NCBI GenBank assembly: GCA_963832025.1
Contig: CAWHSF010000003.1
Coordinates: 366,121-430,120, forward strand
DNA from: Candidatus Nomurabacteria bacterium
GTDB taxonomy: Bacteria > Patescibacteriota > Minisyncoccia > Phycocordibacterales > UBA9973
Length of the DNA stretch: 64,000 nt
Direction of reading: 5' to 3'
Below the pieces are notes generated by a model. That model was not told the DNA's origin. It did not search any database and saw nothing but the letters and a program-made list of their open reading frames with translations. The position numbers and the translations under genes are program-made. Positions 558 to 60,435 of this stretch are shown here, in pieces (the stretch's first letter is position 1; each line of letters opens with the position of its first letter).

Positions 558-818
558 ATGCCTATAGTAAATATAGCGGGTAAAGAAGTAACAATCCCAG
601 AAGGCAGTGACTCGGCGGAGCATGCGGTGAAGTTTTTAACCGAGCATCCTGACGATGCCAAAGCTTTTCTTGAAGCGGCGCATCACAACCATATTACGGG
701 CGTTACTCATTTTGAAACAAATCGTCCGCCCGGATATCTGGGCAGTACGAACTTCACTCTAATTCACACTGGCGATGGGAAATATGAATTAAGAAAAAAA
801 GAACATCACCTTCTCTAA
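558..818 (+). CDS. Hypothetical 86-aa His-rich protein
   Basis: Clean ORF between two genes on the same strand. Its stop overlaps the pheS start (ATGA). No recognisable motif. Confidence 0.4.
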   Translation: MPIVNIAGKEVTIPEGSDSAEHAVKFLTEHPDDAKAFLEAAHHNHITGVTHFETNRPPGYLGSTNFTLIHTGDGKYELRKKEHHLL

Positions 819-1630
819 TGACTGAAGAAAATAAAAAAAATATATCAGCAGTGGCGGGAACAATACATCCGCTTTCTTTATTAGCAGAAGAAGCTTTGCA
901 AGTGTTTTCTGATATGGGTTTTGAAATTGCGACTGGTCCGGAATTGGAAAGTGAATGGTACAACTTTGATGTCTTAAATGTGCCAAAAGACCATCCAGCG
1001 CGTGATATGCAAGACACCTTTTGGATTAAAGATTCTCCGCAGGAGCAAGAGAATTCTGAAGGCGGAAGGTTCCGCCCGAAGGGTGGAGTAATGCCGAAGA
1101 ATTTTCTTACTCCTGCAGGAGAAAATAGATTCGTCCTTCGTACTCACACCACAAGTGTCACTGCGCGGGCGATTGAGCAGGCGGGCAAAGAAGGCAGAAT
1201 GCCTTGTGCTTTTATTTCCATTGGAAAAGTCTTCCGAAATGAAGCCACGGATGCCACGCACGAAATGCAATTTTATCAGATAGATGGCGCGATGGTGGGA
1301 GTTGATATTTCTGTGGCGGACATGAAAGGTGTACTGACTCAATTTTATAAAAAAATGTTAGGCGAAGATGTGGTCATTGAATTTAGACCTAGTTTTTTTC
1401 CATTTACTGAGCCGTCGCTCGAAGTCTTTGCAAAATTTAAAGGTAAATGGCTTGAGATGGGTGGCTCAGGAATGTTGCATCCGAATGTTTTACGCAATAT
1501 TGGATTGGATCCTAAAAAAGTACAGGGATTCGCTTTTGGTCACGGGCTAGACCGCATTGCGATGATTAAATGGGGCATATCCGACGTGCGCTTCTTTTAT
1601 CAGGGAGATTTGAGACTTAATCAGTTTTAA
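818..1630 (+). CDS. pheS: Phenylalanine--tRNA ligase alpha subunit, short form lacking the N-terminal coiled coil, with an in-frame repeat insertion
   Basis: Class II motifs HPARDMQDTFWI, LRTHTTSV, GKVFRNEATDATHEMQFYQIDG and FPFTEPSLEV...GSGMLHPNVL. Extra segment QEQENSEGGRFRPKGGVMPKNF between DTFWI and LRTHT. Confidence 0.95.
   Translation: MTEENKKNISAVAGTIHPLSLLAEEALQVFSDMGFEIATGPELESEWYNFDVLNVPKDHPARDMQDTFWIKDSPQEQENSEGGRFRPKGGVMPKNFLTPAGENRFVLRTHTTSVTARAIEQAGKEGRMPCAFISIGKVFRNEATDATHEMQFYQIDGAMVGVDISVADMKGVLTQFYKKMLGEDVVIEFRPSFFPFTEPSLEVFAKFKGKWLEMGGSGMLHPNVLRNIGLDPKKVQGFAFGHGLDRIAMIKWGISDVRFFYQGDLRLNQF
1034..1122. repeat. ~89-bp hairpin element inside pheS (family A)
   Basis: Imperfect terminal inverted repeats tctccgcaggagcaagagaattc / gaagaattttcttactcctgcaggaga. 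The core is ~90 percent identical to the reverse complement of 3118-3171. Confidence 0.85.
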
Positions 1631-1633
1631 TTT

Positions 1634-3470
1634 ATGAATATTTCCTACAATTGGCTTAAATGGTACATTCCGGAAGCACCCGAGGCGGAAAAGCTGGTGG
1701 ATATTTTTAATTATCATCTCTGCGAAGTCGAGAGCTTAGAAAAGAAACCTGATGGAGATATTATTTTTGACTTGAAAATTTTACCAAACCGCGCGCATGA
1801 CTTGCTTTCTCATCAGGGCGTCGCTCGCGAGCTTGCTTCACTTTTAGATATAAAATTTGTTGACCCTACGCCAAAATATAAAATACCCGAATCAAAACCG
1901 ACCAGTTTAAAAATAGAAATAGAAAGTGATAAATGCCGTCGGTATATGGGACGGATTATTCGCAATGTAAAAGTCGGTCCGTCTCCGGAGTGGGTGGTGC
2001 AACATTTGGCTTCAATCGGGCAGAGAAGCATCAACAACATGGTGGATGCAGCAAATATTGTCATGTTTGATTGTGGTCAACCAACACATGTTTTTGACTT
2101 AGATAAAGTGAGTGAGAAATTAGTGGCTCGTATGGCGAAAGAAGGTGAAAAAATTACGACCTTAGACAATAAAGATTGTAGTCTGGAAGACTCTAATTTA
2201 GTCATTGCTGACGCTAAAAATGTTTTGGCCATCGCCGGAGTAAAAGGTGGAAAAATTGCCGAAGTAAACAATGACACAAAAAACATTATATTGGAGGTGG
2301 CAAATTTCGACCCAACTTCTGTCAGAAAAACTGCGCAAGCTTTAAACATTGTCACTGATGCGAAAAAACGTTTCGAAAATGACCTATCTCCAGAGTTGGG
2401 TTCTTACGCCATGCTTGAATTGTCCGCGCTAATTTTAGAAATGTGTGGAGAGGCTACTTTTGAAGATGTTGTGGATGCCCACCCGACCGAGTCATTCGGG
2501 CAGGTTTATCCACAAAAACAAGAAATAAAAAAGCTTTCTTTTTCAGCCGATAAAATATCAAAAATTTTAGGCGTTGATATTCCTATAGATAAAATAAAAG
2601 ATATTTTAGAGAGATATAATTTAGAATACGTAGAAGATAAAGGAGTTTTTGAAATTACGGTTCCACCGATGCGGCTAGATTTGGTCATTGAAGAAGACAT
2701 GGCGGAAGAAATCGGGAGGATTTTAGGATACGACAAAGTAGAAGGGAAGGTTCCGAAAATAAATTTTAAACCAAAAGTAAATGAGGCGTATGCAAAAATT
2801 GTTTTTGCCAGACATAAACTATTGAGCGATGGATATTCGGAAGTGATGAATACGAGTTTTAGCAATAAAGGGGAAGTGTCTGTTTTGGCATCTGCTTCCG
2901 ATAAAAATTTTCTAAGAGCAAATTTAACTGATGGGTTAAAAGAAAGTATCAAACTAAATCAAGCGAATGCTCCGCTGTTGGGGACGGAGCAAGTTAAAAT
3001 TTTTGAAATTGGAACGGTGTTTAAAAAAAGTGGGGAAGAGATGCATGTGGCTTATGGAGACAAGAAAGAGGTAAAAGAAATAACACTAGATGAATTTTGC
3101 TCTGGAATGCTGGAGCAGAATTCATTGGCATTACTCCACCCTGCGGGCGGAACCTTCCGCCAGCAGAATTCTGCTCCAGCATTCCAGATGTGGTCACTGT
3201 TTCCATTTATTGCGCGCGATATTGCGGTATGGGTTCCGGAAAATATAAAAAGTCGGAGATGTTGCTTTAGTCATCAAAAATAACATGGGAGATAAAGTTA
3301 TTCGAGGACCGGAACTTTTTGATGAGTTTAAAAAAGACGGAAAAATTTCTTATGCGTTTAGATTGGTATTTCAATCTTATGACAGAACTTTGACCGACCA
3401 AGAAGTGAACAATATTATGACAAAAATCACTGACCAGATAAAAGCAAAAAATGGCTGGCAGGTGAGATAG
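1634..3470 (+). CDS. pheT: Phenylalanine--tRNA ligase beta subunit, with no N-terminal tRNA-binding domain. Annotated as two ORFs because of a frame break.
   Basis: N-terminus NISYNWLKWYIP, PNRAHDLLSHQGVAREL, B3/4 and B5-like sequence, C-terminus ISYAFRLVFQSYDRTLTDQEV. ORFs 1634..3283 and 3285..3470 join across the A5 run at 3247-3251, giving ENIK-VGDVALVIKNNMGDKV. Confidence 0.9.
3102..3187. repeat. 86-bp hairpin element inside pheT (family A, opposite orientation)
   Basis: Perfect 22-bp terminal inverted repeats CTGGAATGCTGGAGCAGAATTC (3102-3123) and GAATTCTGCTCCAGCATTCCAG (3166-3187). Confidence 0.9.
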
Positions 3471-5017: not shown

Positions 5018-8000
5018 ATGAATTCTCGCTTATATCTTGGCGATGATAACAAGAAATACATCTCAACTAAAGAGGCTAGTTCTTTGACGGGTTACTCCAG
5101 AGATTATATAGGCCAACTTGTCCGAAGTAATAAGATAGATTCCCAAAAAATTGGCCGTACATGGTATGTCTCGGAGGAAGCAATTTTGAACTATAAAATA
5201 TTCTCAAATCAATTAGGGTTGGTTCCAGATGTGGCGCCAGAAAAGATCCAAAGTGAAAATTTTATTCAAAATCCGGTCGTGATTCCAGTTCCGAGTGTAA
5301 AACTTCCTGCTCCTTCCGTGTCGGGCGAAAAATTAAAAAAGAACCTAAAAAGAAAAAAAATACTTTTATCAACTTTTAGTTTTCTCCTGATAGCCGGGAT
5401 AGTCTCTGCGAGTGGTATCAATTTTAAAGAAGTCTTTAAAAATACTTTCTCCACGCCCAAAAGTTTTTTATCTGCTAGTTCAATCCAATCATTCCCCAAC
5501 AACAAAACACCGACCATAAACATTTCTGACTTGGCGACTTCATATGAAAATTATCTTACTCCACAAGTAGCAACCTCAAGTAAACCTTCTGCTCCTTCGG
5601 TTGAAAAAATTATTGAAATTGAAAAAAGTCCGGTTACGCAAACTGCTGTTCTTTCCATTTTGCAGAACTTGCTCAGCGAACCGGCAATCCAAAATGAACT
5701 TCGTGGTCCGACTGGACCAACCGGCCCAGCCGGAACTTCGGGAAGCTATGCCACCTACACCAGTTATGTGGCTCCGAATCCGGCAATCAATTATGTCGGC
5801 GCCACTTTTTCTTCCGCTTCCAATTTATCTTCCAACCTCTTGAACACCGGCACAGCCAACATAAATAATTTAGCTGTCTCCGCCGGCGCGATAATCGGAA
5901 GTTTGAATGTGACAGGAGATTCTTCTTTTGGCGGACAAGTTGTCGCCTCAACTGTTGTTGATTCCGGTTTAGTAAACCAAACTTGCATCGGCACCGATGC
6001 ATCAGGCGCATTTGAAGCCGGCACTTGTGGCAGTGGTAGTGGCAGTCAGTGGACAACTAGCGGGTCAGATATTTATTACAACACCGGCAACGTCGGCATC
6101 GGCACAACTTCACCGGCAGCAACGCTCGATGTCACCGGCACAGGTAATTTTTCCGGCGCACTGACCGCGGGAACAATTAACGGCATCACTTTCTCCGGTT
6201 CTTCCACGCCGACGCTCAGTGTCTCCGGAACGGCTTCCGTCTCTGGCGCCAACACCGGAGACAATGCAACCAACACACAATATGCAAATGACTATCGAGC
6301 AGCAAATTTTGTCGCCGGCACAGATTACCAAGCCCCCGTCACTCTCACTACCACCGGCAGTAGCGGAGCTTCCACTTTTTCTAGTAACACTTTAAATATT
6401 CCAAACTACACTCTCGCAGGTCTCGGAGGAATTTCTAATATCTCCGGTCAAGATTTAAGCACAGCCAACAATGCAACATCAAAATTTATAACTTTAGGTT
6501 CGCTTTCTGCCGGAACCGGAATTTCTTACGATAATACGACTGGGATAATTACAAATTCTGCTCCAGACCAAACCGTTGCTTTTTCCGGTGGAACAAATGT
6601 AACGATTGGTGGAACTTATCCAAACTTTACAATTACCGACAACTCCATAACTACGGGAGGAGCCAGAAGCGCAATTTCACTGACAACCACCGGAAGTTCC
6701 GGAGCCTCTACTTATAATTCGGGAACGGGTGTTTTAAATATTCCTCAATATCAAGCAGGATTGAGTTTAATTAAGGGAACTTATGTTGATGGGGATGTTT
6801 GTACTTATGCTTCTACCGGCACTCTTTTAAATTGTAATACCGCGGCATATCAAATAGCTTCTTCCGCTCTTTCTTCCATCGCCGGTCTTGCTTGGTCTTC
6901 CGGAACACCTTTCGTTAAAATGACAGCCTCCGGAACCTTTGCGCTAGATACAAATACATATGCGACCGGAAGTGGAACAGCCAGTGGCACCAACACCGGC
7001 GACCAAACACTTACCATCGGGGGCACAACTTCTCCAACTATCGCCTTATCGGGAAGCAATACAGCAACATTCTCCGCAGGAACAGGAATTACTTTAGGGC
7101 AATCGGCTGGAACGATAACAATTACAAATTCTGCACCTTTCACTGGGGGACTTCTTGCTACCGGTGCAACTACCGGTGCAACAAGCCAAGCTCAAGCGTT
7201 TACCAATGGCATAATCTCTCCGACCATTCTGGGCGGTTCAGGAACAACGCAAACACTTAACTTCCAAACTACTTCAGGGGTGGGTGCAACGGGAGCCGAT
7301 ATGCATTTCAATGTCGGCAACAACGGAGCGACGAATGCCATGACGATTTTGAATAGCGGCAACGTCGGCATCGGGACGACGAGTCCGGCACAGAAGTTAA
7401 CTGTCACTGGTGGAAATATACAAATGACTGATGCTGGGGCGAAATTGTATTTAACAGATGGCTCACATTATGTTTCTTACGACGGCACAAATACGCAAAT
7501 ATTTTCTAGTGTTGGTGGCGTCAATTTAGCAGTTAATACGGCATCTCCTATTTCATTTATAACTAATTCAGCGTACCAAATGAGGTTAAGTGCTACTGGA
7601 GGATTGTCACTTGGTTCAACCTATTATTCTACGGACGCTGGGGCAGGGAATATGATAATACAAGGCAAGGTCGGCATCGGGACGACGACGCCTGCTTATG
7701 GTTTAGATGTAGCAAAAGGGACTGGGGCAACGGCACAATTTTTTGACCAAACCGCGACCACGGGTAGCACGCTTGTTACTATTCAAGCAGGTGCGGCACA
7801 AAACGCTGGAGCTTATACAAATGTTTTGAATTTTGCTGGCAATAATGGAACGACCAGAGGGTATATAGCTGTAGACGGATTGAACGGAGTATCAAAACTA
7901 AATATTACTGATGTTGTCGCTTCAAATGGTAATTGGGAGTTAAAAGATTCGGGCTCGTTAAATATGTATGCTGGCAATTCAATCTACTTGCAAAATGCTC

Positions 8001-11000
8001 ACTCCAACTCTAATATACAATTGTATAACACTGGGGCAACGGGGGTATCGAGTCTAGCAATAATGAACGGCAACGTCGGCATCGGGACCACGGGGCCGAG
8101 TGATTTGTTGCAACTTGGCACTGGAAATTTAAGTTGGTCATCTGATGGTGGCGGTGATATTGGGGCGAGTGGAGGAAATAGACCAGGGAATATTTATGCT
8201 AAGATTCAAGTCAGGGCTGGTGCTGGTTATCTAAATGGTAATACGGTTGGAGGGAGTAGCAATTTTGCTTTGTCTGGTGGTGGTAGTGCTACTTTGACAA
8301 TTGGCGGAACAAGCAACACCATTGTTTTCAAAACTACCGCCTCTAATTCAGAGGTAATGAGGATAGAACCAATAAACGGCAACGTCGGCATCGGGACGAC
8401 GACACCGACGGCTTACTTAAACATCAAAGCAGGAACAGCCACAGCTAACACCGAACCTCTACAACTTACCGCTGGAGTATTAAACACCTCCGCCGTCTCC
8501 GGAGCATTAGAAACAGATGCAAGTAACAATTTATATTACACACCGGGTACAGGAACGAGAGGAATTATTCCTTTGGGCACAGCGGCAAATACTTTGCTCT
8601 TTACTACTACTGGTGCGACGAATGTGACTTTACCAACAAGTGGAACGCTGGCAACACTTGGTTCTCCAACTTTCACTGGCACTGTCACCACACCGGCTTT
8701 AACCATTTCCGGTATCACCGGCAGTACCCAATGCTTACAAGTCAACAGCAGTGGTGTGGTCAGTGGCACATCTGCAGCTTGTGGCGGAGGTGGTGGTTCA
8801 ACTGCTTGGAGCAGTATCACCAACCCAAGCGGAAATCTTTCTTTGGCAATGGCTGGTGACACCAGTACTTTCACTTACGGAGCGACAACCGGTTCAGCAA
8901 ACTTGTTCAACTTAACCGACACCTCTTCCAATACCGGCACTGGAGTTTTGTTGAATGTCTCAACTGCCAGTGGTTCTACTTTAAATCCTTTCTCCGTGAC
9001 TACCGCCGGTGCAACAAATCCGAGCTTGTATGTCGGTTCTAATGGTAACGTTTCAATTGGAACCTCAATTACAAATACTGCAGTTCTGCAAGTACAAGCA
9101 CCGGTTCCGGAGAGTAGTCTTTTTGCTTTTGCGAACCATGATTTTTCTCTGGGTAGCGTAGGAACTGCCATGACGATTGATACCGGAGCTACCTCCGGAG
9201 ATACCTATGTGGATATGCAAGCTTACAACGCTGGTGGAGTTAATGGCGGTCCTTTAGTTTTTAATGCTGCTGGTGGTAATGTCGGGATTGATACAAACGA
9301 CCCAACTACCGCTCTCACCGTTAATGGGAGTATGTCCAATCTCCTTAATCCCAGTTCAGCTTTTTTAAATGTTGTAGGTTCGACATCAATTACTTCTGCT
9401 TCCGTGGTCTACGTCTCCGGTAACTATGCCTATGTGGCAGATTATACCGGTAATGAACTTGATATTGTTGACATTACCAATCCGAATGCTCCCTATGTGG
9501 CTGGCACATTAAGCGGAATTAATCATATCTCTTCCATCTACGTTTCCGGTCGTTATGCCTATGTGACGGACAAAAGTATTGGTGACATGACTATCATTGA
9601 TGTTTCCAATCCGATTTCACCGACTGTGGTCGGTACATTAACCGGACTTAATACTCCTACCTCCATCTACGTTTCTGGTCGTTATGCCTATGTAGCGGAT
9701 AGCGGTAGTGGTGATATGTATGTGATTGATGTTTCCACTCCGAGATTACCGATTGTGGTTGCCACCTTAACCGGGCTGAGTAGTCCTTCCTCCATCTATG
9801 TTTCCGGTCATTATGCCTATGTAGCAGATAGTGGTAGTGGTCACATGTCTATCATCGATATTTCCGATCCGGTTTCACCGAATGTGATAGGTACAGCAAC
9901 CGGACTTGGTAGTCCCTCCTCTGTCTATGTCTCCGGTCGTTATGCCTATGTGACGGATACGGGTAGTGGTAACTTGTATTCCATTGACCTTTCCAACCAA
10001 GCTTCTCCGAGTGTGGTTGGTACGCTACCAGGATTTATTACTCCAACTGATGTCTATGTTTCTGGTAATTTTGCATATGTAACAGACAGTGACGGTGAAC
10101 TCGACGTCGTTGATATTTCCGACCCGACTACTCCGATTTATGATACATATGCAGGACTTACTGCTCCCGACTCGGTCTATGTCTCCGGTCAGTATGCCTA
10201 TGTCGCGGATAGTGGTGGCGGCGATATGGCTGTCATTGACCTAACCGGAACACAAACAACTTCCTTGACCGCCGGGAGTGCGAACATCGGCAACTTGCAG
10301 ATTGCTAATGATTCTTTGGTTGGTGGTCAACTGCAAGTAAATGGTGCCCTGACAGCCAACGGTGGAAACTTTAACAGTGGAGTTGCAGTAAATGGAAATA
10401 TTTCCAATACCATTTCATCTTCTTCTCCTCCGACTGTCGTTGCTACTGCCACCGGGCTGACTAATATCTTAACTGACTATGTCTCCGGTAACTATGCGTA
10501 TGTAGGAACTGGTACCGGTGGTACTGGTCATATGTATATCGTTGATATTTCCAATCCGACTGCTCCGAGTGTTGTCGGTACATTATCAGGGGTTGGTAAG
10601 ATTAATTCTATCTATGTTTCCGGTCAGTATGCCTATGTGTTAGATGATAGTAATGGCTACATGGATGTCGTTGATATTTCCAATCCGCATGCCCCAAGTG
10701 TTGTCGGTACAGTGGTAGGGTTTACTGGTCCTGTATCTATCTATGTTTCCGGTCATTATGCCTATGTGACAGATGCCAATTCTCTGACTTTGTCTGTCAT
10801 CGATGTTTCCAACCCGACTGCTCCGAATCTCATCGGAAGTCCATTGTCGCTGACTGCTCCTCTCTTCATCTATGTTTCCGGTCATTATGCCTATGTGACG
10901 GAAAGTGGTGGGAGCATGGATATCATTGATGTTTCCAATCCGTATTCTCTGAGTATTGTCGGTACAGCCACAGGACTTGGTTCTCTTGATGGCAATGTCT

Positions 11001-12514
11001 ATGTCTCCGGTCGTTATGCGTATGTAACAAATACTGCTAGTAGTGGTGATATGTATGTCGTTGATGTTTCCAATCCAGTTTCTCCAAGTACTGTCGGTAC
11101 ATTAGGACTTTCTTGGCCTCTTGGTATCAATGTCTCCGGTCATTATGCCTATGTGACGAGTTATGCTGGTGGTGGCATGTATGTCCTTGATGTTTCCAAT
11201 CCGACTGCTCCAAGTGCTGTTGCTCTTACACTCGGACTGACTACTCCTTCTTTTATCAGGGTTTCCGGTCGTTATGCCTATGTGGTGGAATCTACTGCTA
11301 GTTCCATGGCTGTCATTGACCTCACTGGTACCCAAACAACTTCTCTCACCTCCGGTAGTGCTAACATCGGTAACTTGCAAATTGCTAATGATGCTTTGAT
11401 TGGTGGTCAACTGCAGGTGAATGGTGGTTTGACGGCAAGTGGTGGAAACTTTTCGGGGGATGTGGCGACTGAGGGATCCTTAAACATTGCTGGATATGTA
11501 GGTATCGGGACGACGATGCCGGACAATCCTCTTACTGTTAACGGCGCAGCGGACAATACTACCGGTGTATGGTCTGTATTTTCTGATGAACGCTTGAAAA
11601 ATATTGACGGCAACTTTAATGATGGCTTGTCCACCCTGATGCAGTTTAATCCGGTTACGTTTACCTATAATGGACAAAATGGAATTTCGGACACTACTAC
11701 ACAGCAAATTGGTATCGTTGCTCAAGACGTGCAACAATTTGCTCCATATATGATAAATACAGTGGAAGGGACATTGAACGGACAGCCTACGAGTCTACTT
11801 CAATTCAACCCGCAAGCATTGCCATATATCACCATCAATGCAGTTAAGGAATTGAATCTAGATTTAGATGCGATTTCGGGATTGACGGTGCCGACTCCGA
11901 CTCCGGAATCTACCAGTTTTGCAACTGCGTTCTTTAAAAATATTGAAACTAAACTTATTGCTTGGTTTGCTGATGCTGGGAATGGAATAGGAGATTTGTT
12001 CGCTGGAACAATTCACGCTACAAATGAACTATGTATCAACACCACTTGCGTGACTCAAGCACAACTGCAAGCACTTTTGGCAAATTTAAATTCAAACGGA
12101 AACGCAGGAAACAATACGTCTGCCAATGCAGGCGAAAATAATTCAAATGTTCAAAATCCGCCTTCCAGTATTCCCGTAATCACTTTGATTGGTGATGCCA
12201 CCATTAATTTAAATGTCGGAGATACTTACACTGAACAAGGAGCAACTGCCACCGAAAATGATAATGCAGTCGCGGTTGTTATCAGCGGGACGGTAGACAC
12301 AACCACTGCCGGCACTTACACTGTTGATTATGATGCGACGGATTCTGCCGGGAACAAAGCGGTTGAAGTTACGAGAACAGTGATTGTTGCAAATGCGCCA
12401 GTTTCAACTTTTTCGTCGGACTCAGGATCTACGGCTACGCCTGCGACAACACCAGATTCAACAACAGCTAATTCCACAACCACTCCAGATTCTAGCACTT
12501 CAACTTCAAACTAA
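5018..12514 (+). CDS. Giant (2498 aa) membrane-anchored surface protein. Domain order: N-terminal excisionase-type HTH, one TM helix, short collagen-like GPT run, tail-fibre-like GNVGIGTTSP repeats, two 7-repeat LVIVD blocks, S74-type intramolecular chaperone domain, Ig-like domain, Thr/Ser-rich tail.
   Basis: Single uninterrupted ORF. HTH: YISTKEASSLTGYSRDYIGQLVRSNKIDSQKIGRTWYV. TM: LLSTFSFLLIAGIVSASGI. Collagen-like: GPTGPTGPAGTSG. Seven G(N/K)VGIG(T/D)T motifs. Fourteen YVSGxYAYVxD...(V/I)(V/I)D(V/I)SNP repeats. S74 domain: SDERLKNI...GIVAQDVQQFAPYMI. Ig-like: ITLIGDATINLNVGDTYTEQGATA...AGTYTVDYDATDSAGN. Confidence 0.85.
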   Translation: MNSRLYLGDDNKKYISTKEASSLTGYSRDYIGQLVRSNKIDSQKIGRTWYVSEEAILNYKIFSNQLGLVPDVAPEKIQSENFIQNPVVIPVPSVKLPAPSVSGEKLKKNLKRKKILLSTFSFLLIAGIVSASGINFKEVFKNTFSTPKSFLSASSIQSFPNNKTPTINISDLATSYENYLTPQVATSSKPSAPSVEKIIEIEKSPVTQTAVLSILQNLLSEPAIQNELRGPTGPTGPAGTSGSYATYTSYVAPNPAINYVGATFSSASNLSSNLLNTGTANINNLAVSAGAIIGSLNVTGDSSFGGQVVASTVVDSGLVNQTCIGTDASGAFEAGTCGSGSGSQWTTSGSDIYYNTGNVGIGTTSPAATLDVTGTGNFSGALTAGTINGITFSGSSTPTLSVSGTASVSGANTGDNATNTQYANDYRAANFVAGTDYQAPVTLTTTGSSGASTFSSNTLNIPNYTLAGLGGISNISGQDLSTANNATSKFITLGSLSAGTGISYDNTTGIITNSAPDQTVAFSGGTNVTIGGTYPNFTITDNSITTGGARSAISLTTTGSSGASTYNSGTGVLNIPQYQAGLSLIKGTYVDGDVCTYASTGTLLNCNTAAYQIASSALSSIAGLAWSSGTPFVKMTASGTFALDTNTYATGSGTASGTNTGDQTLTIGGTTSPTIALSGSNTATFSAGTGITLGQSAGTITITNSAPFTGGLLATGATTGATSQAQAFTNGIISPTILGGSGTTQTLNFQTTSGVGATGADMHFNVGNNGATNAMTILNSGNVGIGTTSPAQKLTVTGGNIQMTDAGAKLYLTDGSHYVSYDGTNTQIFSSVGGVNLAVNTASPISFITNSAYQMRLSATGGLSLGSTYYSTDAGAGNMIIQGKVGIGTTTPAYGLDVAKGTGATAQFFDQTATTGSTLVTIQAGAAQNAGAYTNVLNFAGNNGTTRGYIAVDGLNGVSKLNITDVVASNGNWELKDSGSLNMYAGNSIYLQNAHSNSNIQLYNTGATGVSSLAIMNGNVGIGTTGPSDLLQLGTGNLSWSSDGGGDIGASGGNRPGNIYAKIQVRAGAGYLNGNTVGGSSNFALSGGGSATLTIGGTSNTIVFKTTASNSEVMRIEPINGNVGIGTTTPTAYLNIKAGTATANTEPLQLTAGVLNTSAVSGALETDASNNLYYTPGTGTRGIIPLGTAANTLLFTTTGATNVTLPTSGTLATLGSPTFTGTVTTPALTISGITGSTQCLQVNSSGVVSGTSAACGGGGGSTAWSSITNPSGNLSLAMAGDTSTFTYGATTGSANLFNLTDTSSNTGTGVLLNVSTASGSTLNPFSVTTAGATNPSLYVGSNGNVSIGTSITNTAVLQVQAPVPESSLFAFANHDFSLGSVGTAMTIDTGATSGDTYVDMQAYNAGGVNGGPLVFNAAGGNVGIDTNDPTTALTVNGSMSNLLNPSSAFLNVVGSTSITSASVVYVSGNYAYVADYTGNELDIVDITNPNAPYVAGTLSGINHISSIYVSGRYAYVTDKSIGDMTIIDVSNPISPTVVGTLTGLNTPTSIYVSGRYAYVADSGSGDMYVIDVSTPRLPIVVATLTGLSSPSSIYVSGHYAYVADSGSGHMSIIDISDPVSPNVIGTATGLGSPSSVYVSGRYAYVTDTGSGNLYSIDLSNQASPSVVGTLPGFITPTDVYVSGNFAYVTDSDGELDVVDISDPTTPIYDTYAGLTAPDSVYVSGQYAYVADSGGGDMAVIDLTGTQTTSLTAGSANIGNLQIANDSLVGGQLQVNGALTANGGNFNSGVAVNGNISNTISSSSPPTVVATATGLTNILTDYVSGNYAYVGTGTGGTGHMYIVDISNPTAPSVVGTLSGVGKINSIYVSGQYAYVLDDSNGYMDVVDISNPHAPSVVGTVVGFTGPVSIYVSGHYAYVTDANSLTLSVIDVSNPTAPNLIGSPLSLTAPLFIYVSGHYAYVTESGGSMDIIDVSNPYSLSIVGTATGLGSLDGNVYVSGRYAYVTNTASSGDMYVVDVSNPVSPSTVGTLGLSWPLGINVSGHYAYVTSYAGGGMYVLDVSNPTAPSAVALTLGLTTPSFIRVSGRYAYVVESTASSMAVIDLTGTQTTSLTSGSANIGNLQIANDALIGGQLQVNGGLTASGGNFSGDVATEGSLNIAGYVGIGTTMPDNPLTVNGAADNTTGVWSVFSDERLKNIDGNFNDGLSTLMQFNPVTFTYNGQNGISDTTTQQIGIVAQDVQQFAPYMINTVEGTLNGQPTSLLQFNPQALPYITINAVKELNLDLDAISGLTVPTPTPESTSFATAFFKNIETKLIAWFADAGNGIGDLFAGTIHATNELCINTTCVTQAQLQALLANLNSNGNAGNNTSANAGENNSNVQNPPSSIPVITLIGDATINLNVGDTYTEQGATATENDNAVAVVISGTVDTTTAGTYTVDYDATDSAGNKAVEVTRTVIVANAPVSTFSSDSGSTATPATTPDSTTANSTTTPDSSTSTSN

Positions 12515-12681: not shown

Positions 12682-14778
12682 ATGGCAAAAGAGAAAGAAG
12701 ACAAAAAAGGTGGCGACAAAAGCCACCATTATGATGCCTCCGACATCTCGGTTTTGGAGGGTCTGGAGCCGGTTCGACGCCGTCCGGGCATGTATATCGG
12801 TACGACGGGGCCGGAAGGCTTACATCATTTGATTTGGGAAATTTTTGACAACTCTCGTGATGAAGCGATGGGTGGTTTTTGTGACGATATTGAAATTGTG
12901 CTTTTGCCAAACAACCGCATACGCGTCGCCGACAACGGCCGAGGCATGCCGGTAGACATTCATAAAAAAACCAAAGTCTCCGCGTTGGAGACAGTCATGA
13001 CGACACTGCACGCCGGAGGAAAATTCGGCGGTGACCATAGTGGCTACAAAGTTTCCGGAGGTTTGCACGGTGTCGGCGCTTCGGTAGTGAATGCGCTTTC
13101 TATTTTTTGCGAAGCGAGAGTTTGTCGAGACGGTGGTGAATACCGACAAGAATATTCGGAGGGCAAAAGAAAATCCGCGGTTAAAAAAATAGCGTCTTCA
13201 AAATTGCATGGCACGATTATCACTTTTGAACCGGATAAAAAAATTTTTGGTGATATTAAATTTGATTGGAATACCATTGTCGCTCATATTCGCCAACAAG
13301 CTTATTTGGTGAAAAAACTGAAAATTTTAATTATTGATGCGCGTGAATGGGACAATAATAAAGGTATGAATGAATCCGACGTTTTTTATTTTCGGGACTT
13401 GAGGCTGGAACTTCCGTCGGTCTCTTTTTATTTTGAAGGCGGATTGGTTTCTCTCGTAAAATATTTGAACAAATTTCAAAAGCCCGTCCAAAGCAATATT
13501 TTTTATGTTGAAAAAGAATTGGATGGTGTCGGTGTGGAGATAGCTCTGCAATATGTAGATGATATTTCCGAACGCATCATTCCTTTTGCAAACAATATCA
13601 ATACTCCCGAAGGTGGCACCCATGTGACTGGTTTTAAAACAGCACTCACTAGAACTTTGAATACTTACTGCAAGAAAAATGAAATGATGAAAGAGTCCGA
13701 AGGCGGATTTACCGGCGAAGACGTCTTGGAAGGTTTGACGGCGGTCATTTCTGTAAAATTGCGCGAGATACAATTTGAAGGTCAGACTAAAGCAAAACTC
13801 GGTAGTATGGAGGCGCAAGGCGCGGTGGCGACAGTTTTCGGCGAAGCCTTCGCAAATTTCTTGGAAGAAAATCCGGACGAAGCAAAAATAATCATCAACA
13901 AATCCATTCTTGCCTTAAAAGCCCGCAAAGCCGCCAAAGCCGCCAAAGATTCCATCCTCCGCAAGGGTGCTTTGGAAGGGATGACTCTTCCGGGGAAACT
14001 CGCAGACTGCCAGAGCAAGAATGCATCCGAATCCGAACTATTCATCGTGGAGGGAGATTCCGCAGGTGGTAGTGCCAAACAAGGACGCGACCGTCGCACT
14101 CAAGCTATTTTGCCACTTGCGTGGAAAAATTTTGAATGTTGAACGCGCGCGCATTGACAAAATGCTCGCTTCCAAAGAAGTGAAATCGCTTGTCATTGCC
14201 ATGGGTACATCCATAGGAGATACCTTTGATATAGACAAAATGCGTTACCATAAAATAATCATCGCGACCGATGCCGACGTGGACGGTTCCCACATCAGCA
14301 CATTGCTTTTGACTCTTTTCTATCGATATTTTCGCCAAGTGATTGACGCGGGATATATTTACATCGCGCAGCCTCCACTATATAAAATAAAAAAAGGCAA
14401 AGAAATTTTTTATGCTTACACTGATGAAGAAAAAGTAAAAATTATCGGCAAAAATGCGGATGTGAGTGACATTGAGGAGGTGGAAGATGAAGAACCCCTA
14501 CCCGACCTCCCCCTTGTTAAGGGGGAGGAGAAGAGGAGGAGGGTCTAGAGAAAAAATCCACTAAAATTCACATTCAGCGATATAAAGGTCTCGGAGAAAT
14601 GAATCCAGAAGAACTTTGGGAGACGACCATGGATCCTGCACATCGCGTGCTCAAGCAAGTGATGATTAATGACGCCGAAGAAGCCAACAAAATTTTTGAT
14701 ATTCTCATGGGCTCCGAAGTTCCTCCGCGTAAATCTTTCATTCAATCCAATGCGAAACTAGCGGAGATTGATATCTAA
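12682..14778 (+). CDS. gyrB: DNA gyrase subunit B. The reading requires two frame changes.
   Basis: Motifs [70 protein letters not shown] and [19 protein letters not shown]. The frame changes near 14117 (extra base between CTT and CGT) and returns in the G5 run at 14521-14525, inside a palindromic insert. Confidence 0.9.
14506..14528. repeat. Family B palindrome inside gyrB
   Basis: cctccccctt-gtt-aagggggagg. The 10-bp stems are identical to the smc copy. Confidence 0.85.
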
Positions 14779-19245: not shown

Positions 19246-21417
19246 ATGCGTCTCAAGACCCTTCAATTAAATGGTTTTAAATCATTTGCCCAAAAGACAG
19301 TTTTAGAATTCGAAAGCCCTATTGTTTCCATCGTCGGGCCCAATGGATCCGGAAAATCCAATATTGTGGAAGCTTTTCGTTTTGTCTTAGGTGAACAATC
19401 CATGAAATCCATGCGCGGAAAGGGTGGTTCAGACCTTGTGTTTAAGGGTTCAAAAAAACTGTCAGCCGGTTCTAAAGCTTCTGTCTCTATTTATTTTAAT
19501 AACACCGATAAGGTGTTTAAATTATCCAACGACGGAGGAGATGAAATAAATCTAAATTACGACACCATTTCTATTTCTCGCGAAGTTTACTCCGACGGAC
19601 TTAACAAATATATTTTAAATGGTTCGGAGGTTAGACTGAAAGATATTCACAATTTGCTTGCCTCGGTGAACATCGGTTCTTCCGGACACCATATCATCTC
19701 TCAAGGCGAGGCAGACAGAATTTTAAATGCAAACACGAAAGACAGGCGTGAGATGGTTGAGGATGCGCTTGGATTGAAAATCTATCAATATAAAATTAAA
19801 GAATCAGAAAGAAAACTGGAAAAGACAAATGAGAACATGAAAGAAGTTGTTCTTCAGCGTCGAGAAAATGTTCCGCATTTGAATTTTTTGAAAAAACAGG
19901 TAGAGAAATTTGAAAAGACGAAAGAAATGCAATCGGAGCTAGCAGTTCTCTATAAAGAATATTTAAAAAAGGAAAGTGTTTACTTAGAACAAGAAAAAGA
20001 AGCGCTCGGAGCAGAGAGAAAAAAAATTTCAACTGAGTTAAAGAGCGTGGATGAGAAAATTTCTATTATTGAGGACAATGACCCCCTCCGTCATTCTGAC
20101 ACCTCCCCCTTATTAAGGGGGAGGATTGGTGGGAGTTCTTCTTTAGAAGAACTCAGACTGCTCGAGCAGAAAATAAATTCTTTACGAGCAAGTAGAGGAG
20201 AACTTGAACGTAAACTCGGACGCATTGAAGGAATCTTGGAATCTAGAGCAAATAAAGTTCAAATTTCTGGTAGGTGTCCGCTTTGTGGTAGTGAAATTAA
20301 AGAAAATGCCGAGCAGATAGAAAAAAAACATAATGAAGAAAAAGAACTTGAAGAATTAAAAGTCTCACAAGCAAATGCGTTATCGGAAATAAAAAAGATT
20401 GAAGCGGAAGAAAAAGAGGGAATCAGTTCGGCGGAAAAATTGAAACAGGACATAAACAAGGAGATGGAAGCTTTGCGTGATTTGGAACGCGAGAAATTTG
20501 CTTTCAAAGTGCGTCACCAGGAGCTAACGTCTGCCTTAGAACTCGTAGTTATTAAGGAAGGGAATTTACATAGTCGCACAGAGGCTTTTGAACAAGAAAT
20601 AAAAGAAGGCGCAGTCTTGATCGGACAAGAAATTTATTCTTATAAAACTTATGAAGTCACAGAAGATGTTTTGGGTCATATTCAAGAAGAGCAGAGAAAA
20701 AAAATTGAACGTATCAAGATAAAATTGGAAGATACCGGTTTGGGGAATGGAGCCGAGCTTATGAAAGAATTTCAAGAAGTCTCCGAACGAGATCAGTTTT
20801 TGGCAAAAGAGATGGAAGATTTGGAGAAAAGCATCGAATCATTGAAAAAATTGATTGCAGACTTGAAAGAAAAAATTGACATAGAATTTAAAGAAGGCGT
20901 GAAAAAAATAAATGTGGAGTTCCAGGAATTTTTCTCGCTGATGTTTGGCGGAGGGCACGGTTCTCTTTCTATTATTGAAATTAAAAAGAGAAAAGTGAAT
21001 GAAGTGGATGAGGATGGGGAGGAGATAACTGAGATGGAAGATGAAGAAGACGAAATGCCGGAAAAAGGAATAGAAATAAATGTTTCTTTGCCGCATAAAA
21101 AAGTGAAAGAACTGAATGCTTTTTCGGGCGGAGAACGCTCGCTCACATCTATCGCGCTTCTGTTCGCCATGTCGCAAGTGAATCCGCCACCGTTTCTGGT
21201 GCTGGATGAGACAGATGCCGCGCTCGATGAATCAAATTCCCGTAAATACGGCGATATGCTTGAAAAACTTTCCGAACATTCTCAGCTTGTCGTTGTTACC
21301 CACAATCGCGAGACGATGTCTCGCGCCGGGATACTTTACGGCATCACTATCGGTTCCGACGAAGCTTCCAAACTTCTTTCTGTAAAATTCGAAGAAGCCA
21401 CGCAGATTGCAAAATAG
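19246..21417 (+). CDS. smc: SMC-family ATPase, short (723 aa) and hingeless, with a central CPLC motif
   Basis: N-terminal head: GFKSFAQKTVLEFESPIVSIVGPNGSGKSNIVEAFRFVLGEQS. C-terminal head: FSGGERSLTSIALLFAM...FLVLDETDAALD...VVTHNRETM. About 375 aa of Lys/Glu-rich coiled-coil-like sequence with GRCPLCGSE at aa 342-350 and no hinge-like Gly-rich domain. Confidence 0.8.
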   Translation: MRLKTLQLNGFKSFAQKTVLEFESPIVSIVGPNGSGKSNIVEAFRFVLGEQSMKSMRGKGGSDLVFKGSKKLSAGSKASVSIYFNNTDKVFKLSNDGGDEINLNYDTISISREVYSDGLNKYILNGSEVRLKDIHNLLASVNIGSSGHHIISQGEADRILNANTKDRREMVEDALGLKIYQYKIKESERKLEKTNENMKEVVLQRRENVPHLNFLKKQVEKFEKTKEMQSELAVLYKEYLKKESVYLEQEKEALGAERKKISTELKSVDEKISIIEDNDPLRHSDTSPLLRGRIGGSSSLEELRLLEQKINSLRASRGELERKLGRIEGILESRANKVQISGRCPLCGSEIKENAEQIEKKHNEEKELEELKVSQANALSEIKKIEAEEKEGISSAEKLKQDINKEMEALRDLEREKFAFKVRHQELTSALELVVIKEGNLHSRTEAFEQEIKEGAVLIGQEIYSYKTYEVTEDVLGHIQEEQRKKIERIKIKLEDTGLGNGAELMKEFQEVSERDQFLAKEMEDLEKSIESLKKLIADLKEKIDIEFKEGVKKINVEFQEFFSLMFGGGHGSLSIIEIKKRKVNEVDEDGEEITEMEDEEDEMPEKGIEINVSLPHKKVKELNAFSGGERSLTSIALLFAMSQVNPPPFLVLDETDAALDESNSRKYGDMLEKLSEHSQLVVVTHNRETMSRAGILYGITIGSDEASKLLSVKFEEATQIAK
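20102..20124. repeat. Family B palindrome inside smc
   Basis: cctccccctt-att-aagggggagg, with GC-rich flanks. Translated as [11 protein letters not shown]. Confidence 0.85.
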
Positions 21418-26115: not shown

Positions 26116-27075
26116 TTGAAACGGTATTTCACACTGGTAGTACTCGCCCTGGCAATGGCTTTGGCGACTGGCGTGCCAGCAATGGCACAAGCAGTGGTGG
26201 ATCACTTCAAAACCCCCGGGGAATGCTTGACGGCGAGGGTGCCTTACACGCCGTCTATTACGAGGCCAAAGCCACTGGTTGATGGGGAATCATTGATCCC
26301 CAACAGAAACGGCGGTTGCGCTGACATGACTCTTCCTGATCGTCTCGGCGGTCGTGGTTGGGTCTTCGTAACAGGCGACATTATCGACGGCAAAAAGGGT
26401 ATGCGCTACCAACCATGCGGGAATACAGTGTTTGCGTTCATTCCTGTGGAGCCGACACCGACACCGACGCCCAGTACTCAACAGGCCGACAACGACGAGG
26501 ACAATGCTCCGCCTCAACGGCAACCACAGATTATTTTGGTGCAGTCACCTCCTGTTAATGTGACTGCGATAAGCGGTGGTAGCGGCGGGAATTATACTCC
26601 TGCTGCGTACGACGGCCAAGAAGGGAATTACTCCTGCAATCCGGCAGGGCTCCTTGCAAGTTGCGACAGCTATGGTAGTTGTCGCACTATGTATCCCGTT
26701 CAGCAATGTGGTTCGGGACAAGGTGGCTACGGCTACAACGATGGCAACGGCTACGGCGGGGGCGGTGTGATGATCAACGGGGTGTTGGTCATCGGCGGCA
26801 ACGGCTATGGTGGCGGTTATGGCGGTGGCTACGGCGGTCGTGGCGGCTATGGCGGTCGTGGCGGTGGCTACGGCGGAGGTCGTGGTTATCGTGGCGGCGG
26901 CGGTTATCGTGGCGGCGGCGGTTATCGTGGCGGCAATGGCGGCGGCAACCCACGTCCGAAGGGGGGGCCAGTACGGCCAGTTGGTGGCGGCGGCGGTGGA
27001 AGGTCAGGCGGCGGATCGCTTCCGCCCTCTAACGGAAGCCGCTCCTTCAGTCGCGGAGGAGGTGGACGCCGGTAA
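26116..27075 (+). CDS. Secreted Cys-containing protein with a Gly/Tyr/Arg-rich (GGYGGRGG / GYRGGG) C-terminal tail. Encoded on a GC-rich compositional island. TTG start.
   Basis: RBS gaggaggt lies 6 nt before the TTG. Signal peptide: MKRYFTLVVLALAMALATGVPAMAQA. The reading frame is kept over 960 nt of sequence far more GC-rich than its neighbours. Consensus promoter directly upstream. Confidence 0.7.
   Translation: MKRYFTLVVLALAMALATGVPAMAQAVVDHFKTPGECLTARVPYTPSITRPKPLVDGESLIPNRNGGCADMTLPDRLGGRGWVFVTGDIIDGKKGMRYQPCGNTVFAFIPVEPTPTPTPSTQQADNDEDNAPPQRQPQIILVQSPPVNVTAISGGSGGNYTPAAYDGQEGNYSCNPAGLLASCDSYGSCRTMYPVQQCGSGQGGYGYNDGNGYGGGGVMINGVLVIGGNGYGGGYGGGYGGRGGYGGRGGGYGGGRGYRGGGGYRGGGGYRGGNGGGNPRPKGGPVRPVGGGGGGRSGGGSLPPSNGSRSFSRGGGGRR
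26884..26937 (+). repeat. Perfect 18-bp tandem repeat (GGTTATCGTGGCGGCGGC) x3, encoding GYRGGG
   Basis: Read directly at 26884-26901 and 26902-26919. The third unit ends in aat. Confidence 0.85.
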
Positions 27076-48745: not shown

Positions 48746-48821
48746 TGGAGCCGCCTCTCGGATTCGAACCGAGGACCTTCACTTTACAAAAGTGTTGCTC
48801 TACCAGCTGAGCTAAGGCGGC
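48746..48821 (-). tRNA. tRNA-Thr (anticodon UGU), CCA encoded
   Basis: The reverse complement gccgccttagctcagctggtagagcaacacttttgtaaagtgaaggtcctcggttcgaatccgagaggcggctcca folds as a cloverleaf. Anticodon loop is ttTGTaa. Confidence 0.9.
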
Positions 48822-57398: not shown

Positions 57399-57406
57399 CA
57401 TTTTTG

Positions 57407-57768
57407 TTGCAGGTATCTATAAGCCGAATTTCGTAGTCTGACCGAAGTCGGACGATAGTAATTTATCTAGGCCTCAAATTACTCTGAGGCTCAAGCGATT
57501 CTCCCCCACACCTTTCGGAGCGATGCGCAGTTGCGCGTTGTATTTCACAACCTCGTTCTGAAAGGTGTGGGGGCACGATCTTGCACACACGTAAGTATTT
57601 TGCCGTTTCACTCCCGCCGATGGCGGGATTCGTCACTGTTCGCAACTCTATCCTTACGGATGATGGGTATTACCCACTACGCTTGCCTAGACGCAAGGTC
57701 AGGGCTGTGTGTTCGGACTTTCCTCCCGCCTTATAAAAGACGAGTAACTATCCAATACCTGCACCCTT
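57407..57768 (-). ncRNA. rnpB: RNase P RNA (bacterial type)
   Basis: The reverse complement contains CR-I ggcGGGAGGAAAGTCCGAACacacag (57710-57735) and CR-V-like cagactACGAAATTCGGCTTATag (57417-57440). The ends pair as P1 (gcaggtat / atacctgc). ORF-track ORFs here are spurious. Confidence 0.85.
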
Positions 57769-59529: not shown

Positions 59530-59600
59530 TGGACCTAGCGAGAATCGAACTCGCGCTTCGTCAATGCGAATGACGCGTAATACCACTTTACTATAGGCCC
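59530..59600 (-). tRNA. tRNA-Ala (anticodon CGC)
   Basis: The reverse complement gggcctatagtaaagtggtattacgcgtcattCGCattgacg... has the G3:U70 pair, A73, a perfect 5-bp anticodon stem and a TTCGATT T-loop. Confidence 0.75.
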
Positions 59601-59615
59601 GTGTATGCGGGTATG

Positions 59616-59687
59616 TGCGTCTTGTTGGAATCGGACCAACGGCCTTTCCGATGTGAACGGAACGCTCTACCCCTGAGCTAAAGACGC
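59616..59687 (-). tRNA. tRNA-Val (anticodon CAC)
   Basis: The reverse complement gcgtctttagctcaggggtagagcgttccgttCACatcggaa... folds as a cloverleaf with acceptor gcgtctt/aagacgc. Confidence 0.85.
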
Positions 59688-59702
59688 AAGCAGAATTCCC
59701 AG

Positions 59703-59773
59703 TGGACCTACGGAGAGTCGGACTCCGACCTCGTCCATGCCATGGACGCGTTCTACCGCTGAACTATAGGCCC
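59703..59773 (-). tRNA. tRNA-Ala (anticodon GGC)
   Basis: The reverse complement gggcctatagttcagcggtagaacgcgtccatGGCatggacg... has the G3:U70 pair and A73. Confidence 0.85.
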
Positions 59774-59858
59774 GTCTGTAGAATAATAGCCGAAATATAT
59801 AAAAATACAACGGCAATTTACATTTTAATCAAAATAATATAAAATGCCTTTGTTGTCT

Positions 59859-59931
59859 GGGCCTTTAGCTCATCTGGTAGAGCGCCTCATTTGCAATGAG
59901 GAGGTAAGGAGTTCGAGTCTCCTAAGGTCCA
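59859..59931 (+). tRNA. tRNA-Ala (anticodon UGC)
   Basis: gggcctttagctcatctggtagagcgcctcattTGCaatgagg...aggagttcgagtctcctaaggtcca, with the G3:U70 pair and A73. Confidence 0.9.
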
Positions 59932-60103
59932 CAATGATCCGCGAGAACAGCTGGGAGCTGCTTGAGCGAATCATCATTGTGTGACATGAGAGACGAGAAA
60001 GGCGGAGGCCGACGGGCCGAGCCGGGGTAGCGAAATTTTTCAGTAGAAAAATATTTGTGACCGAGTCTCCTAATGTCCACAGTTGTTCTTTGGAAAATTA
60101 AAT

Positions 60104-60157
60104 TCGGGAGTAGCTCAGCGGTACCTGCCTGCCGGCAGGCAGGGGGCGGTCGCCTGT
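60104..60157 (+). pseudogene. Orphan 5-prime half of tRNA-Asn (acceptor to anticodon positions 34-35) carrying a 20-bp palindrome in the D arm
   Basis: tcgggagtagctcagcggta[cctgcctgccggcaggcagg]gggcggtcgcctgt matches the intact tRNA-Asn 5-prime half at 60415-60448, apart from the insert and one substitution. Confidence 0.75.
60124..60143. repeat. Family C 20-bp perfect palindrome inside the tRNA-Asn 5-prime fragment
   Basis: CCTGCCTGCCGGCAGGCAGG, inserted relative to the intact tRNA-Asn D arm. Confidence 0.9.
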
Positions 60158-60171
60158 GATATGATTTAGAA

Positions 60172-60435
60172 ATGGAGGAAAATTTCGTTTACGCCATAAA
60201 AAGCATAAAGGATGGCAGAATTTATGTTGGAATGAGTCGTAACCCGTAAAAGAGATTGTTGGAACACAACAGCGGAAAAGTTTTTTCTACGAAAGGTTTT
60301 CGTCCTTGGATTCTGATATTTTTTGAAAATACTGGCGCAAGTAGAATTTATGCCAGAATTAGGGAAAAATATTGGAAATCAGGGTGTGGTAAGGAAAAAT
60401 TGAAAAAAGAATATTCGGGAGTAGCTCAGCGGTAG
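60172..60435 (+). pseudogene. Small GIY-YIG (COG2827/YhbQ-like) nuclease gene with an in-frame TAA at 60247-60249. Its 3-prime end runs into tRNA-Asn.
   Basis: Translation: MEENFVYAIKSIKDGRIYVGMSRNP*KRLLEHNSGK...GFRPWILIFFE...ARIREKYWKSG. This is the GIY...YVG...R...EHN pattern of the GIY-YIG fold. Confidence 0.7.

Follow-up and report, generated by a model that had tools for sequence, protein, structure and literature searches.

A dispersed family of in-frame hairpin repeats in housekeeping genes of Nomurabacteria, probably akin in kind to the Rickettsia palindromic elements

The DNA analyzed here, hereafter the window, is a 64-kb stretch from a bacterium of the Patescibacteria (candidate phyla radiation) that lies near Candidatus Nomurabacteria/Paceibacterota records, with a best PheS match 85% identical. 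Close to its beginning, pheS (818–1630) and pheT (from 1634), which encode the two subunits of phenylalanine-tRNA ligase, are arranged head to tail, and each carries one copy of the same hairpin-forming element, in opposite orientations. The segments 1050–1103 and 3119–3172 constitute the longest inverted repeat of the window, with 49 of 54 nt complementary (91%), close to the ~48 of 53 positions counted in a preliminary description of this DNA. The 16-mer GGCGGAAGGTTCCGCC occurs in the window just in the two copies, with 0.00 occurrences expected from shuffled sequence, and a profile built from 77 members of the family described below finds only these two (E = 2e-20 for pheS and 1e-18 for pheT), the next match having E = 0.4. 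The pheT copy is closed by a perfect 23-bp inverted repeat (3101–3123/3166–3188) and forms an 88-nt hairpin, slightly longer than the 22 bp and 86 nt given earlier, while the pheS copy has an imperfect stem of ~24 bp (1033–1057/1098–1123; formerly ~25 bp) with one bulge and one internal mismatch. The folding energy is −53.4 kcal/mol (z = −8.4) for the pheS copy and −57.8 kcal/mol (z = −8.8) for the pheT copy, within an overall z range of about −8 to −10, and 0 of 200 shuffles fold as well in either case. Both orientations are open in their own host frame and read as the peptides already quoted in the preliminary description; the pheT segment lies in the linker ahead of the C-terminal anticodon-binding (FDX-ACB) domain. 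Candidate tryptic peptides of the inserts include FRPK/GGVMPK in PheS and NSLALLHPAGGTFR in PheT.

Comparison with homologues marks both hairpins as insertions and not as ancestral parts of the proteins: most PheS homologues show an empty site, and the segment is missing from solved PheS structures. The majority of the 120 best PheS homologues have a length of 235–241 aa and the empty site IKDKKEHVLRTH, reading FWIKD-KKEH-VLRTHT there; at least 10 extra residues are present at exactly this loop in 29 of the 120, and these represent several distinct insert families. The same site is empty in the DNA of a close relative, L073 (L-numbers denote loci fetched from other genomes for comparison), as AAA GAT|AAA AAA GAA CAC|GTA, and relative to it the window pheS holds 87 inserted nt at ~1034–1120, or 29 codons, encoding SPQEQENSEGGRFRPKGGVMPKNFLTPAG. 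PheS residues 73–103 have no counterpart in solved structures and fall between residues 108 and 109 of 2rhq_A. The AlphaFold2 model of PheS has a per-residue confidence (pLDDT) below 50 at residues 66–108, so that the insert is modelled with low confidence. The PheT site is an inter-domain linker that is hypervariable in length and sequence among PheT homologues, and orthologous copies occupy the same place in the same orientation in L001, L004 and L009. The preliminary description had allowed that the segment might be an ancestral part of both proteins; the empty PheS sites, the solved PheS structures and the hypervariable PheT linker speak against this.

Three further observations concern pheT itself. 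Its open reading frame (ORF; 1634–3283) ends early at a 1-nt frame change near 3255–3262, at an A-run plus CGGAGAT, and the C-terminal FDX-ACB part (KVGDVALVIKNNMGDKVIRGPELFDEF...WQVR) continues in another frame to a stop codon at 3468–3470; the change may reflect faulty assembly, a pseudogene or programmed frameshifting. At 2477–2503 the window PheT has a 27-nt, 9-codon insert, AHPTESFGQ, that contains the short inverted repeat CCCGA...TCGGG and is absent from the PheT of L001 and L004. In a relative (L074, 5100–5300), two separate ORFs are called for PheT (...NLNEFGK* then MNSENKKFKMWSLFPF...); the break falls exactly in the linker that holds the element elsewhere and carries a GAATTC remnant.

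The element is dispersed well beyond this operon. An exact-pattern scan with GGAAGGTTCCNNCCGNAGGNTGGAG, covering one genome per species and expected to give ~0.3 chance matches, returned 68 loci. Together with the window and the loci fetched earlier, these yield 78 distinct genuine copies in ~27 Nomurabacteria/Paceibacterota genomes, three matches in other phyla (L024, L065 and L072) having been dropped as chance matches that form no hairpin. By the strict pattern a genome contains 1–12 copies; MAG_BO118, the closest relative, has at least 12. When the host ORFs were clustered and scanned with Pfam, ~20 sites in housekeeping genes were resolved. The hosts recognized by Pfam are MnmA (two sites), a flavin adenine dinucleotide (FAD)-linked oxidase (two), the CCA-adding enzyme, an S-adenosylmethionine (SAM) methyltransferase, HolB, LeuRS, UvrA, Dus, PurH and Tgt; LigA (three sites), PheS and PheT are further hosts, and UvrC, TypA and an IscS-like protein were recognized solely by eye. 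Within these proteins the elements occupy permissive surface loops or inter-domain linkers. Of all copies, 73 of 78 (94%) are intragenic and the remaining five are intergenic, immediately past stop codons, a split that approximates the coding density and so indicates that genes are not avoided.

Presence and absence differ between genomes at LigA, which is empty in L010 and L023, and at the FAD oxidase, which is empty in L007, L014 and L036. Tandem or adjacent copies also occur: in two cases members stand side by side in opposite orientation inside one gene (LigA of L004, 4090–4262; FAD oxidase of L013, 5390–5544), an arrangement that shows repeated hits or duplication at hot spots. No two copies flank an ORF in the fetched loci, whole genomes not having been searched, and the core pattern has no match in viral contigs, giving no sign of a phage vector. 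A full-text literature search, the coverage of which was incomplete, returned no description of such elements in genomes of the candidate phyla radiation, Patescibacteria or Parcubacteria. The preliminary description had singled out the two subunit genes of one enzyme as a special pair. This emphasis is not supported, because the same element is dispersed at ~20 sites in unrelated genes: the pheS and pheT copies are two of the old, tolerated, recurrent sites, and their inverted arrangement is incidental.

A gap-free alignment of the 77 full-length copies spans 87 columns and shows a common anatomy. A 56-nt core is bounded by AGAATTYT ends, the octamer being self-palindromic, and encloses a middle helix of 4 bp and an apical hairpin of 8 bp, TTCCRNCC-GNA-GGNTGGAG. 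Beyond the octamers the stem extends for a further 8–20 bp, with a sequence that is different in every copy, is complementary in register and retains a weak family consensus, GCAGGAGAAG; the hairpins have a modal length of 78 nt and a median of 82 nt. When the 77 copies were scored on the consensus structure, 90.9% of cells were paired, compared to 67.9% in shuffles, and both sides had changed at 26 of 35 pairs. The covariation score was 0.617, compared to 0.185 in shuffles, 0 of 500 of which reached 0.617, and to 0.10–0.18 when the partners were slid. Stem columns have an entropy of 1.7–1.9 bits without codon periodicity, and core columns outside the positions fixed by the search pattern 0–1 bit. 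Degenerate copies number 8 versus 79 intact ones in 565 kb. Both this scarcity and the contrast between core and stem are partly a matter of ascertainment by the core pattern, which does not account for the invariant AATT and TAA positions of the core, since they lie beyond that pattern.

Some stems reach a few bases into conserved native codons, namely PheT's Phe codon and the codons for 'YFD' of the FAD oxidase. Copying of the stems from the target at insertion, by snap-back synthesis or inverted target duplication, was considered and rejected for PheS, where the arms are unlike the empty site and show the weak family consensus. A match of the GAA apical triloop to the tRNA-Phe anticodon was dismissed as coincidence: the middle base varies, and the element is found in many other genes. 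Other hairpin inserts occupy the same PheS loop in L074 (3175–3297), L075 (1666–1791) and L077 (1678–1812), with different cores, AGAATTYT-like ends and copy-specific stems. Because these other core families share the AGAATTYT ends, the octamer may be the functional end of a wider superfamily. In L076 (1678–1821) the same loop is filled by a small hairpin unit, DPKCGCDTTN, that is duplicated in tandem.

Without exception, the 73 intragenic copies remain open and keep the phase of their hosts, and each orientation uses one frame. The 11–12 forward (pheS-like) cores read ...NSxGGRFRPKGGVMxKN(S/F)..., and the 61–62 reverse (pheT-like) cores read ...KN(S/F)xxLL(H/Q)PS(G/A)GTF(R/P)xQNS.... The forward core is open in the used frame in 91% of cases and in the other two frames in 23% and 45%. 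In the reverse core none of the three frames is mostly closed (96, 87 and 84% open), yet a single one is used, which leads us to reject stop codons as the cause of this restriction; for the 12 reverse-only sites, use of a single frame by chance would have a probability of ~(1/3)^12. Both used frames read AAT|TCT at the palindromic ends and are the pair interconverted by inversion of the core in place. The presence of every intragenic copy in the AAT|TCT frame would be explained if cores flip, because a flip keeps that frame, the sole one open both ways. The strict frame and its openness also argue for translation and against bypassing or excision, suggesting that the elements are transcribed and translated as 22–30 extra residues, as are the Rickettsia palindromic elements (RPEs).

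The history of the sites was traced through core identity. Copies at the same site in different genomes have a core identity of 0.71, compared to 0.66 for different sites within a genome (0.658) and 0.65 for different sites between genomes (0.646). The greater likeness of same-site cores points to vertical inheritance without homogenization within genomes; gene conversion as a means of keeping the cores of one genome similar is rejected by the near equality of 0.658 and 0.646 at different sites. Between orthologous PheT copies the stems have diverged, each change being compensated in the opposite arm. Together with presence and absence among genomes, the same-site similarity shows spread to ~20 sites in the past and then vertical inheritance at each.

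Inheritance has not preserved orientation. Both core orientations are found at identical codon positions in 6 of the 14 sites represented in multiple genomes, as at MnmA, which reads GHYA + 6 residues + N(F/S) in all seven genomes. Same-site pairs in opposite orientation have an identity of 0.727, against 0.699 for those in the same orientation, and exceed different-site pairs (resampling p ~0.001). The best opposite-orientation pairs include HolB of L030 and L038 (0.91) and PheS of L001, forward, and L009, reverse (0.89). For PheS, the closest relative, L004, has the orientation opposite to that of the window, and the more distant L001 has the same. We take closely related cores in opposite orientation at identical codon positions as evidence of in-place flipping on an evolutionary time scale, and we infer that the core has occasionally flipped about its palindromic ends.

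The mispairs point to the strand on which the hairpin folds. When the core is reversed, as in 61 copies, the core-forward strand is the one antisense to the mRNA. Counted on that antisense strand, G.T wobbles exceed A.C mismatches by 37:12 (outer stem), 35:1 (AGAATTYT stem) and 40:0 (inner pair 41–51). At this inner pair the change that would give a Watson–Crick pair in the mRNA is synonymous, yet it has not been fixed. The wobble bias indicates that pairing is kept on one DNA strand whatever the gene direction and argues against an mRNA function for most copies. The relevant folded species would be single-stranded DNA or an antisense transcript, not the mRNA.

Taken together, these results favor, with a probability of roughly 0.7, a dispersed new family of selfish hairpin repeats that are in frame, translated and like the RPEs in kind. 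On this account, the elements would have spread to ~20 permissive sites in Nomurabacteria/Paceibacterota and later been inherited vertically. The outer stems would have changed almost to saturation while remaining complementary, through selection for pairing or through template-switch correction from arm to arm, and the hairpin would be maintained on one DNA strand independently of host gene direction. The core would flip in place about its AGAATTYT ends, preserving the AAT|TCT frame, and the host proteins would carry the insert as 22–30 extra residues in tolerant loops.

Several points weigh against this interpretation. The core is far more conserved than the stems, where a purely selfish, long-resident element should decay evenly; together with the few degenerate copies, this may be a sign that the core is under selection or that turnover follows a poorly understood process. 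No target-site duplication was found in any of the 77 copies for k >= 4 at the base of the hairpin, although the true ends are uncertain, as stems may grow or shrink. Neither a mobilizing enzyme nor a recent insertion was found, and it is the distribution that suggests mobility. The single-frame rule may stem from target preference or peptide selection instead of flipping. Translation is argued from frame conservation and openness, the AlphaFold2 model of the insert being of low confidence.

A less likely alternative is that the element is an invertible in-frame cassette, or a hairpin element of an undescribed sort, in which the core is selected on one DNA strand, as single-stranded DNA or an antisense RNA and irrespective of host-gene direction, the stem may be any pairing sequence, the core flips between two coding orientations about its AGAATTCT ends and different cores are exchangeable between the same ends. 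If the cassette reading were true, the element would be more than junk, and an unknown enzyme specific for its site or structure, or else some function of the host, would have to act within essential genes of these candidate-phyla-radiation bacteria.

Somewhat more doubtful than the cassette is a domesticated, host-functional hairpin. Its core, as a DNA strand or an antisense RNA, would be a strand-specific binding or processing site under purifying selection, for example in replication, repair or recombination, and reading through it would be a tolerated side effect. Such a function would fit a core that is much more conserved than the stems at vertically inherited sites, the small number of decayed copies, the pairing kept by one DNA strand regardless of gene direction, the occurrence of several different cores with the same AGAATTYT ends at one PheS loop and the lack of core homogenization within genomes. 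It is countered by the finding that most close relatives are without the element at a given site, by the low copy number (1–12 per genome by the strict pattern) and by the location of the sites in permissive loops, as for tolerated junk; no partner protein was identified, and the core conservation is in part an artefact of searching by core pattern.

We consider it very unlikely that the element acts at the mRNA level, whether the hairpins or a pheS–pheT duplex regulate pheST expression, mRNA stability or translational pausing, or the inverted copies mediate inversion of the pheS–pheT junction. Both copies form very stable RNA hairpins, and several sites lie at domain boundaries, where pausing could aid folding. 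The pairing of the two copies anticipated in the preliminary description does appear in silico, where the minimum-free-energy structure of the pheST transcript pairs them over 50 bp and the cofold reaches −122 kcal/mol, compared to −111 kcal/mol for the separate hairpins. As a function, however, the long-range duplex is unsupported, because the pheS hairpin could already have folded locally when its partner, 2 kb further on, is made, ribosomes traverse both and the arrangement is not conserved: relative to each other, the two copies are inverted in L001 as in the window, but direct in L004 and L009. An mRNA role also sits poorly with the presence of the same element in ~20 unrelated genes, with flips at orthologous sites that turn the RNA sequence into its complement and with the fact that the mRNA is the A.C-mismatch strand in 84% of copies, where repairing synonymous changes are not fixed. 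Rfam gave no family at gathering thresholds over the window, nor at permissive thresholds over 900–3400, and nothing at the elements; the best sub-threshold match was mir-284, at 26.4 bits versus the 60 required. Inversion of the junction, proposed earlier as a possible consequence, is likewise unsupported as a function: a 2-kb inversion would destroy both essential genes.

Least credible of all is an untranslated intervening sequence, removed by ribosome bypass (as in T4 gene 60 or mitochondrial 'byps') or by RNA excision to leave proteins free of extra residues: a stable hairpin inside a coding sequence is a hallmark of bypass elements, and the insert is disordered in the AlphaFold2 model, but frame and stop codons would then be unconstrained, whereas all 73 intragenic copies are open and in phase, the forward ones although their other two frames are mostly closed.

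If the preferred reading of translated, RPE-like selfish repeats is correct, the gene-dense, tiny genomes of the candidate phyla radiation harbor selfish or semi-selfish DNA in essential genes, a condition hitherto best known from Rickettsia. Loops in aminoacyl-tRNA synthetases and in enzymes of repair and of tRNA modification would become longer and disordered through the inserts, and errors can follow in alignments, in phylogenomic markers, in predicted structures and in the genes called from metagenome-assembled genomes. The family also represents a natural experiment in which a nucleic-acid hairpin and a reading frame are maintained together. Strand-specific pairing, the single frame and the flips raise the questions of what moves the elements, what causes the core to be conserved and whether both orientations occur within populations. 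The coordinates of the two window copies and their host genes are collected in Table 1.

Table 1 Positions of the hairpin elements and their host genes in the window
Feature	Position	Strand	Basis
pheS, phenylalanine-tRNA ligase alpha subunit, 270 aa; host of copy 1	818–1630	+	ORF; homologues 72–85% identical named PheS, with PF01409; PDB PheS chains E = 2e-61
Copy 1, whole hairpin; core forward relative to the gene	1033–1123	+	Fold, empty site, structure comparison
Copy 1, conserved 56-nt core: AGAATTCT (1050–1057), middle helix, inner hairpin TTCCGCCC-GAA-GGGTGGAG, AGAATTTT (1098–1105)	1050–1105	+	Family alignment, pair counts, profile E = 2e-20
Copy 1, left outer stem arm; copy-specific, near the weak family consensus GCAGGAG	1033–1049	+	
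Copy 1, right outer stem arm; complement of 1033–1049	1106–1123	+	
pheT, beta subunit; host of copy 2	1634–3470	+	Alignment with L001 and L004 PheT, three-frame translation
Copy 2, whole hairpin, 88 nt, perfect 23-bp arms; core reverse relative to the gene; encodes SGMLEQNSLALLHPAGGTFRQQNSAPAFQ	3101–3188	-	
Copy 2, conserved 56-nt core; 91% identical to the reverse complement of the copy 1 core	3117–3172	-	
Copy 2, outer stem arm; partner of 3173–3188	3101–3116	-	
Copy 2, other outer stem arm; enters the codon of the conserved native Phe in 'F(K/Q)MWSLFPF'	3173–3188	-	

Elsewhere the window contains a second, unrelated hairpin repeat, CCTCCCCCTTNTTAAGGGGGAGG, at 14489–14540 and 20095–20141, with a 10-bp stem (z = −3.0 and −4.3). 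Its first copy is in frame near the end of a GyrB-like ORF (14021–14548) and its second lies in an SMC gene (19246–21417); peptides like that of this repeat (GTPPxKGGE..NPP..EEGAGGG) fill the PheS loop of the homologues P0015, P0029 and P0085. The ORF at 14021–14548, of 175 aa, is the only GyrB/Toprim-like one in the window and represents the C-terminal part alone. Directly after pheT, the relative L004 has a full gyrB, and the window has genes for a 439-aa secreted-looking protein and a 2498-aa repeat protein. The latter (5018–12514) has ~14 tandem 129-nt (43-aa) repeats at 9339–11320 (...VYVSGRYAYVTD...) and repeated GNVGIGTTSP motifs, and it resembles a surface protein. At 26779–26942 there is a low-complexity coding repeat rich in Gly, Tyr and Arg, GGYGGRGG.... 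RNA genes at 57404–57763, 48749–48821 and 59530–60486 comprise a class A RNase P RNA (114.5 bits) together with six tRNA genes, of which four fall within 59530–59931.

Among known systems, the bypass elements of T4 gene 60 and of Magnusiomyces mitochondria ('byps') resemble the present family as mobile hairpin-forming inserts in coding sequences. They are undecoded, however, and free in frame and stop codons, whereas here frame and openness are strictly kept. The coding palindromes of Nematomorpha mitochondrial genes are long near-perfect inverted repeats in which hairpin and coding are preserved together; both arms encode conserved protein parts and there is no dispersed sequence family (Mikhailov et al. 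2019, PMC6649704). The hairpin described here, in contrast, is an added, non-conserved insertion with a shared core.

Repetitive extragenic palindromes (REPs), their mosaic clusters (BIMEs) with the associated RAYT transposases, and palindromes derived from IS200/IS605 share with the family an imperfect hairpin recognized or kept on one DNA strand; they lack target-site duplications, and none was seen at the hairpin base here. REPs are 20–40 nt long, extragenic, present in hundreds of copies and marked by a GTAG or CGTC tag (PMC3733652). By comparison, the present copies are 94% intragenic and few per genome, and their consensus has no GTAG/CGTC tag.

[quoted passage not shown] MITEs have shared terminal inverted repeats, target-site duplications and a cognate insertion sequence (IS), and usually lie between genes. 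In the present family the copies have no more than the inner octamer AGAATTYT in common and the outermost stems differ in every copy; no duplication was detected at the hairpin base, no cognate transposase was found in the fetched loci and nearly all copies are intragenic.

The RPEs offer the better match. They comprise RPE-1 to RPE-10 (Ogata et al. 2000; Claverie and Ogata 2003), and related protein-coding palindromic repeats exist in Wolbachia. RPEs insert in frame in many genes (PMC10969869), and an RPE-7-like insert of 63–84 bp is present in the PheT of all Rickettsia (PMC1779305). The likeness lies in short palindromic repeats dispersed through a reduced genome, placed in frame in unrelated housekeeping genes, with a peptide predicted at permissive sites. 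The present elements are palindromes that form long hairpins, have dispersed copies in unrelated genes, lie in frame within open hosts and are absent from other orthologues. They differ in belonging to a host of another phylum, the Patescibacteria, in their length (~80 nt versus 100–150 bp) and in being 94% intragenic, compared to roughly half for RPEs. To our knowledge, four features of the present family have not been reported for RPEs: the use of a single frame in each orientation, flipping of the core between orthologues, a conserved core within covarying stems that are particular to each copy, and a wobble bias that favors one strand. By these comparisons of kind, the element appears best filed not as an RPE by sequence but as a new family of the RPE kind in a different phylum.

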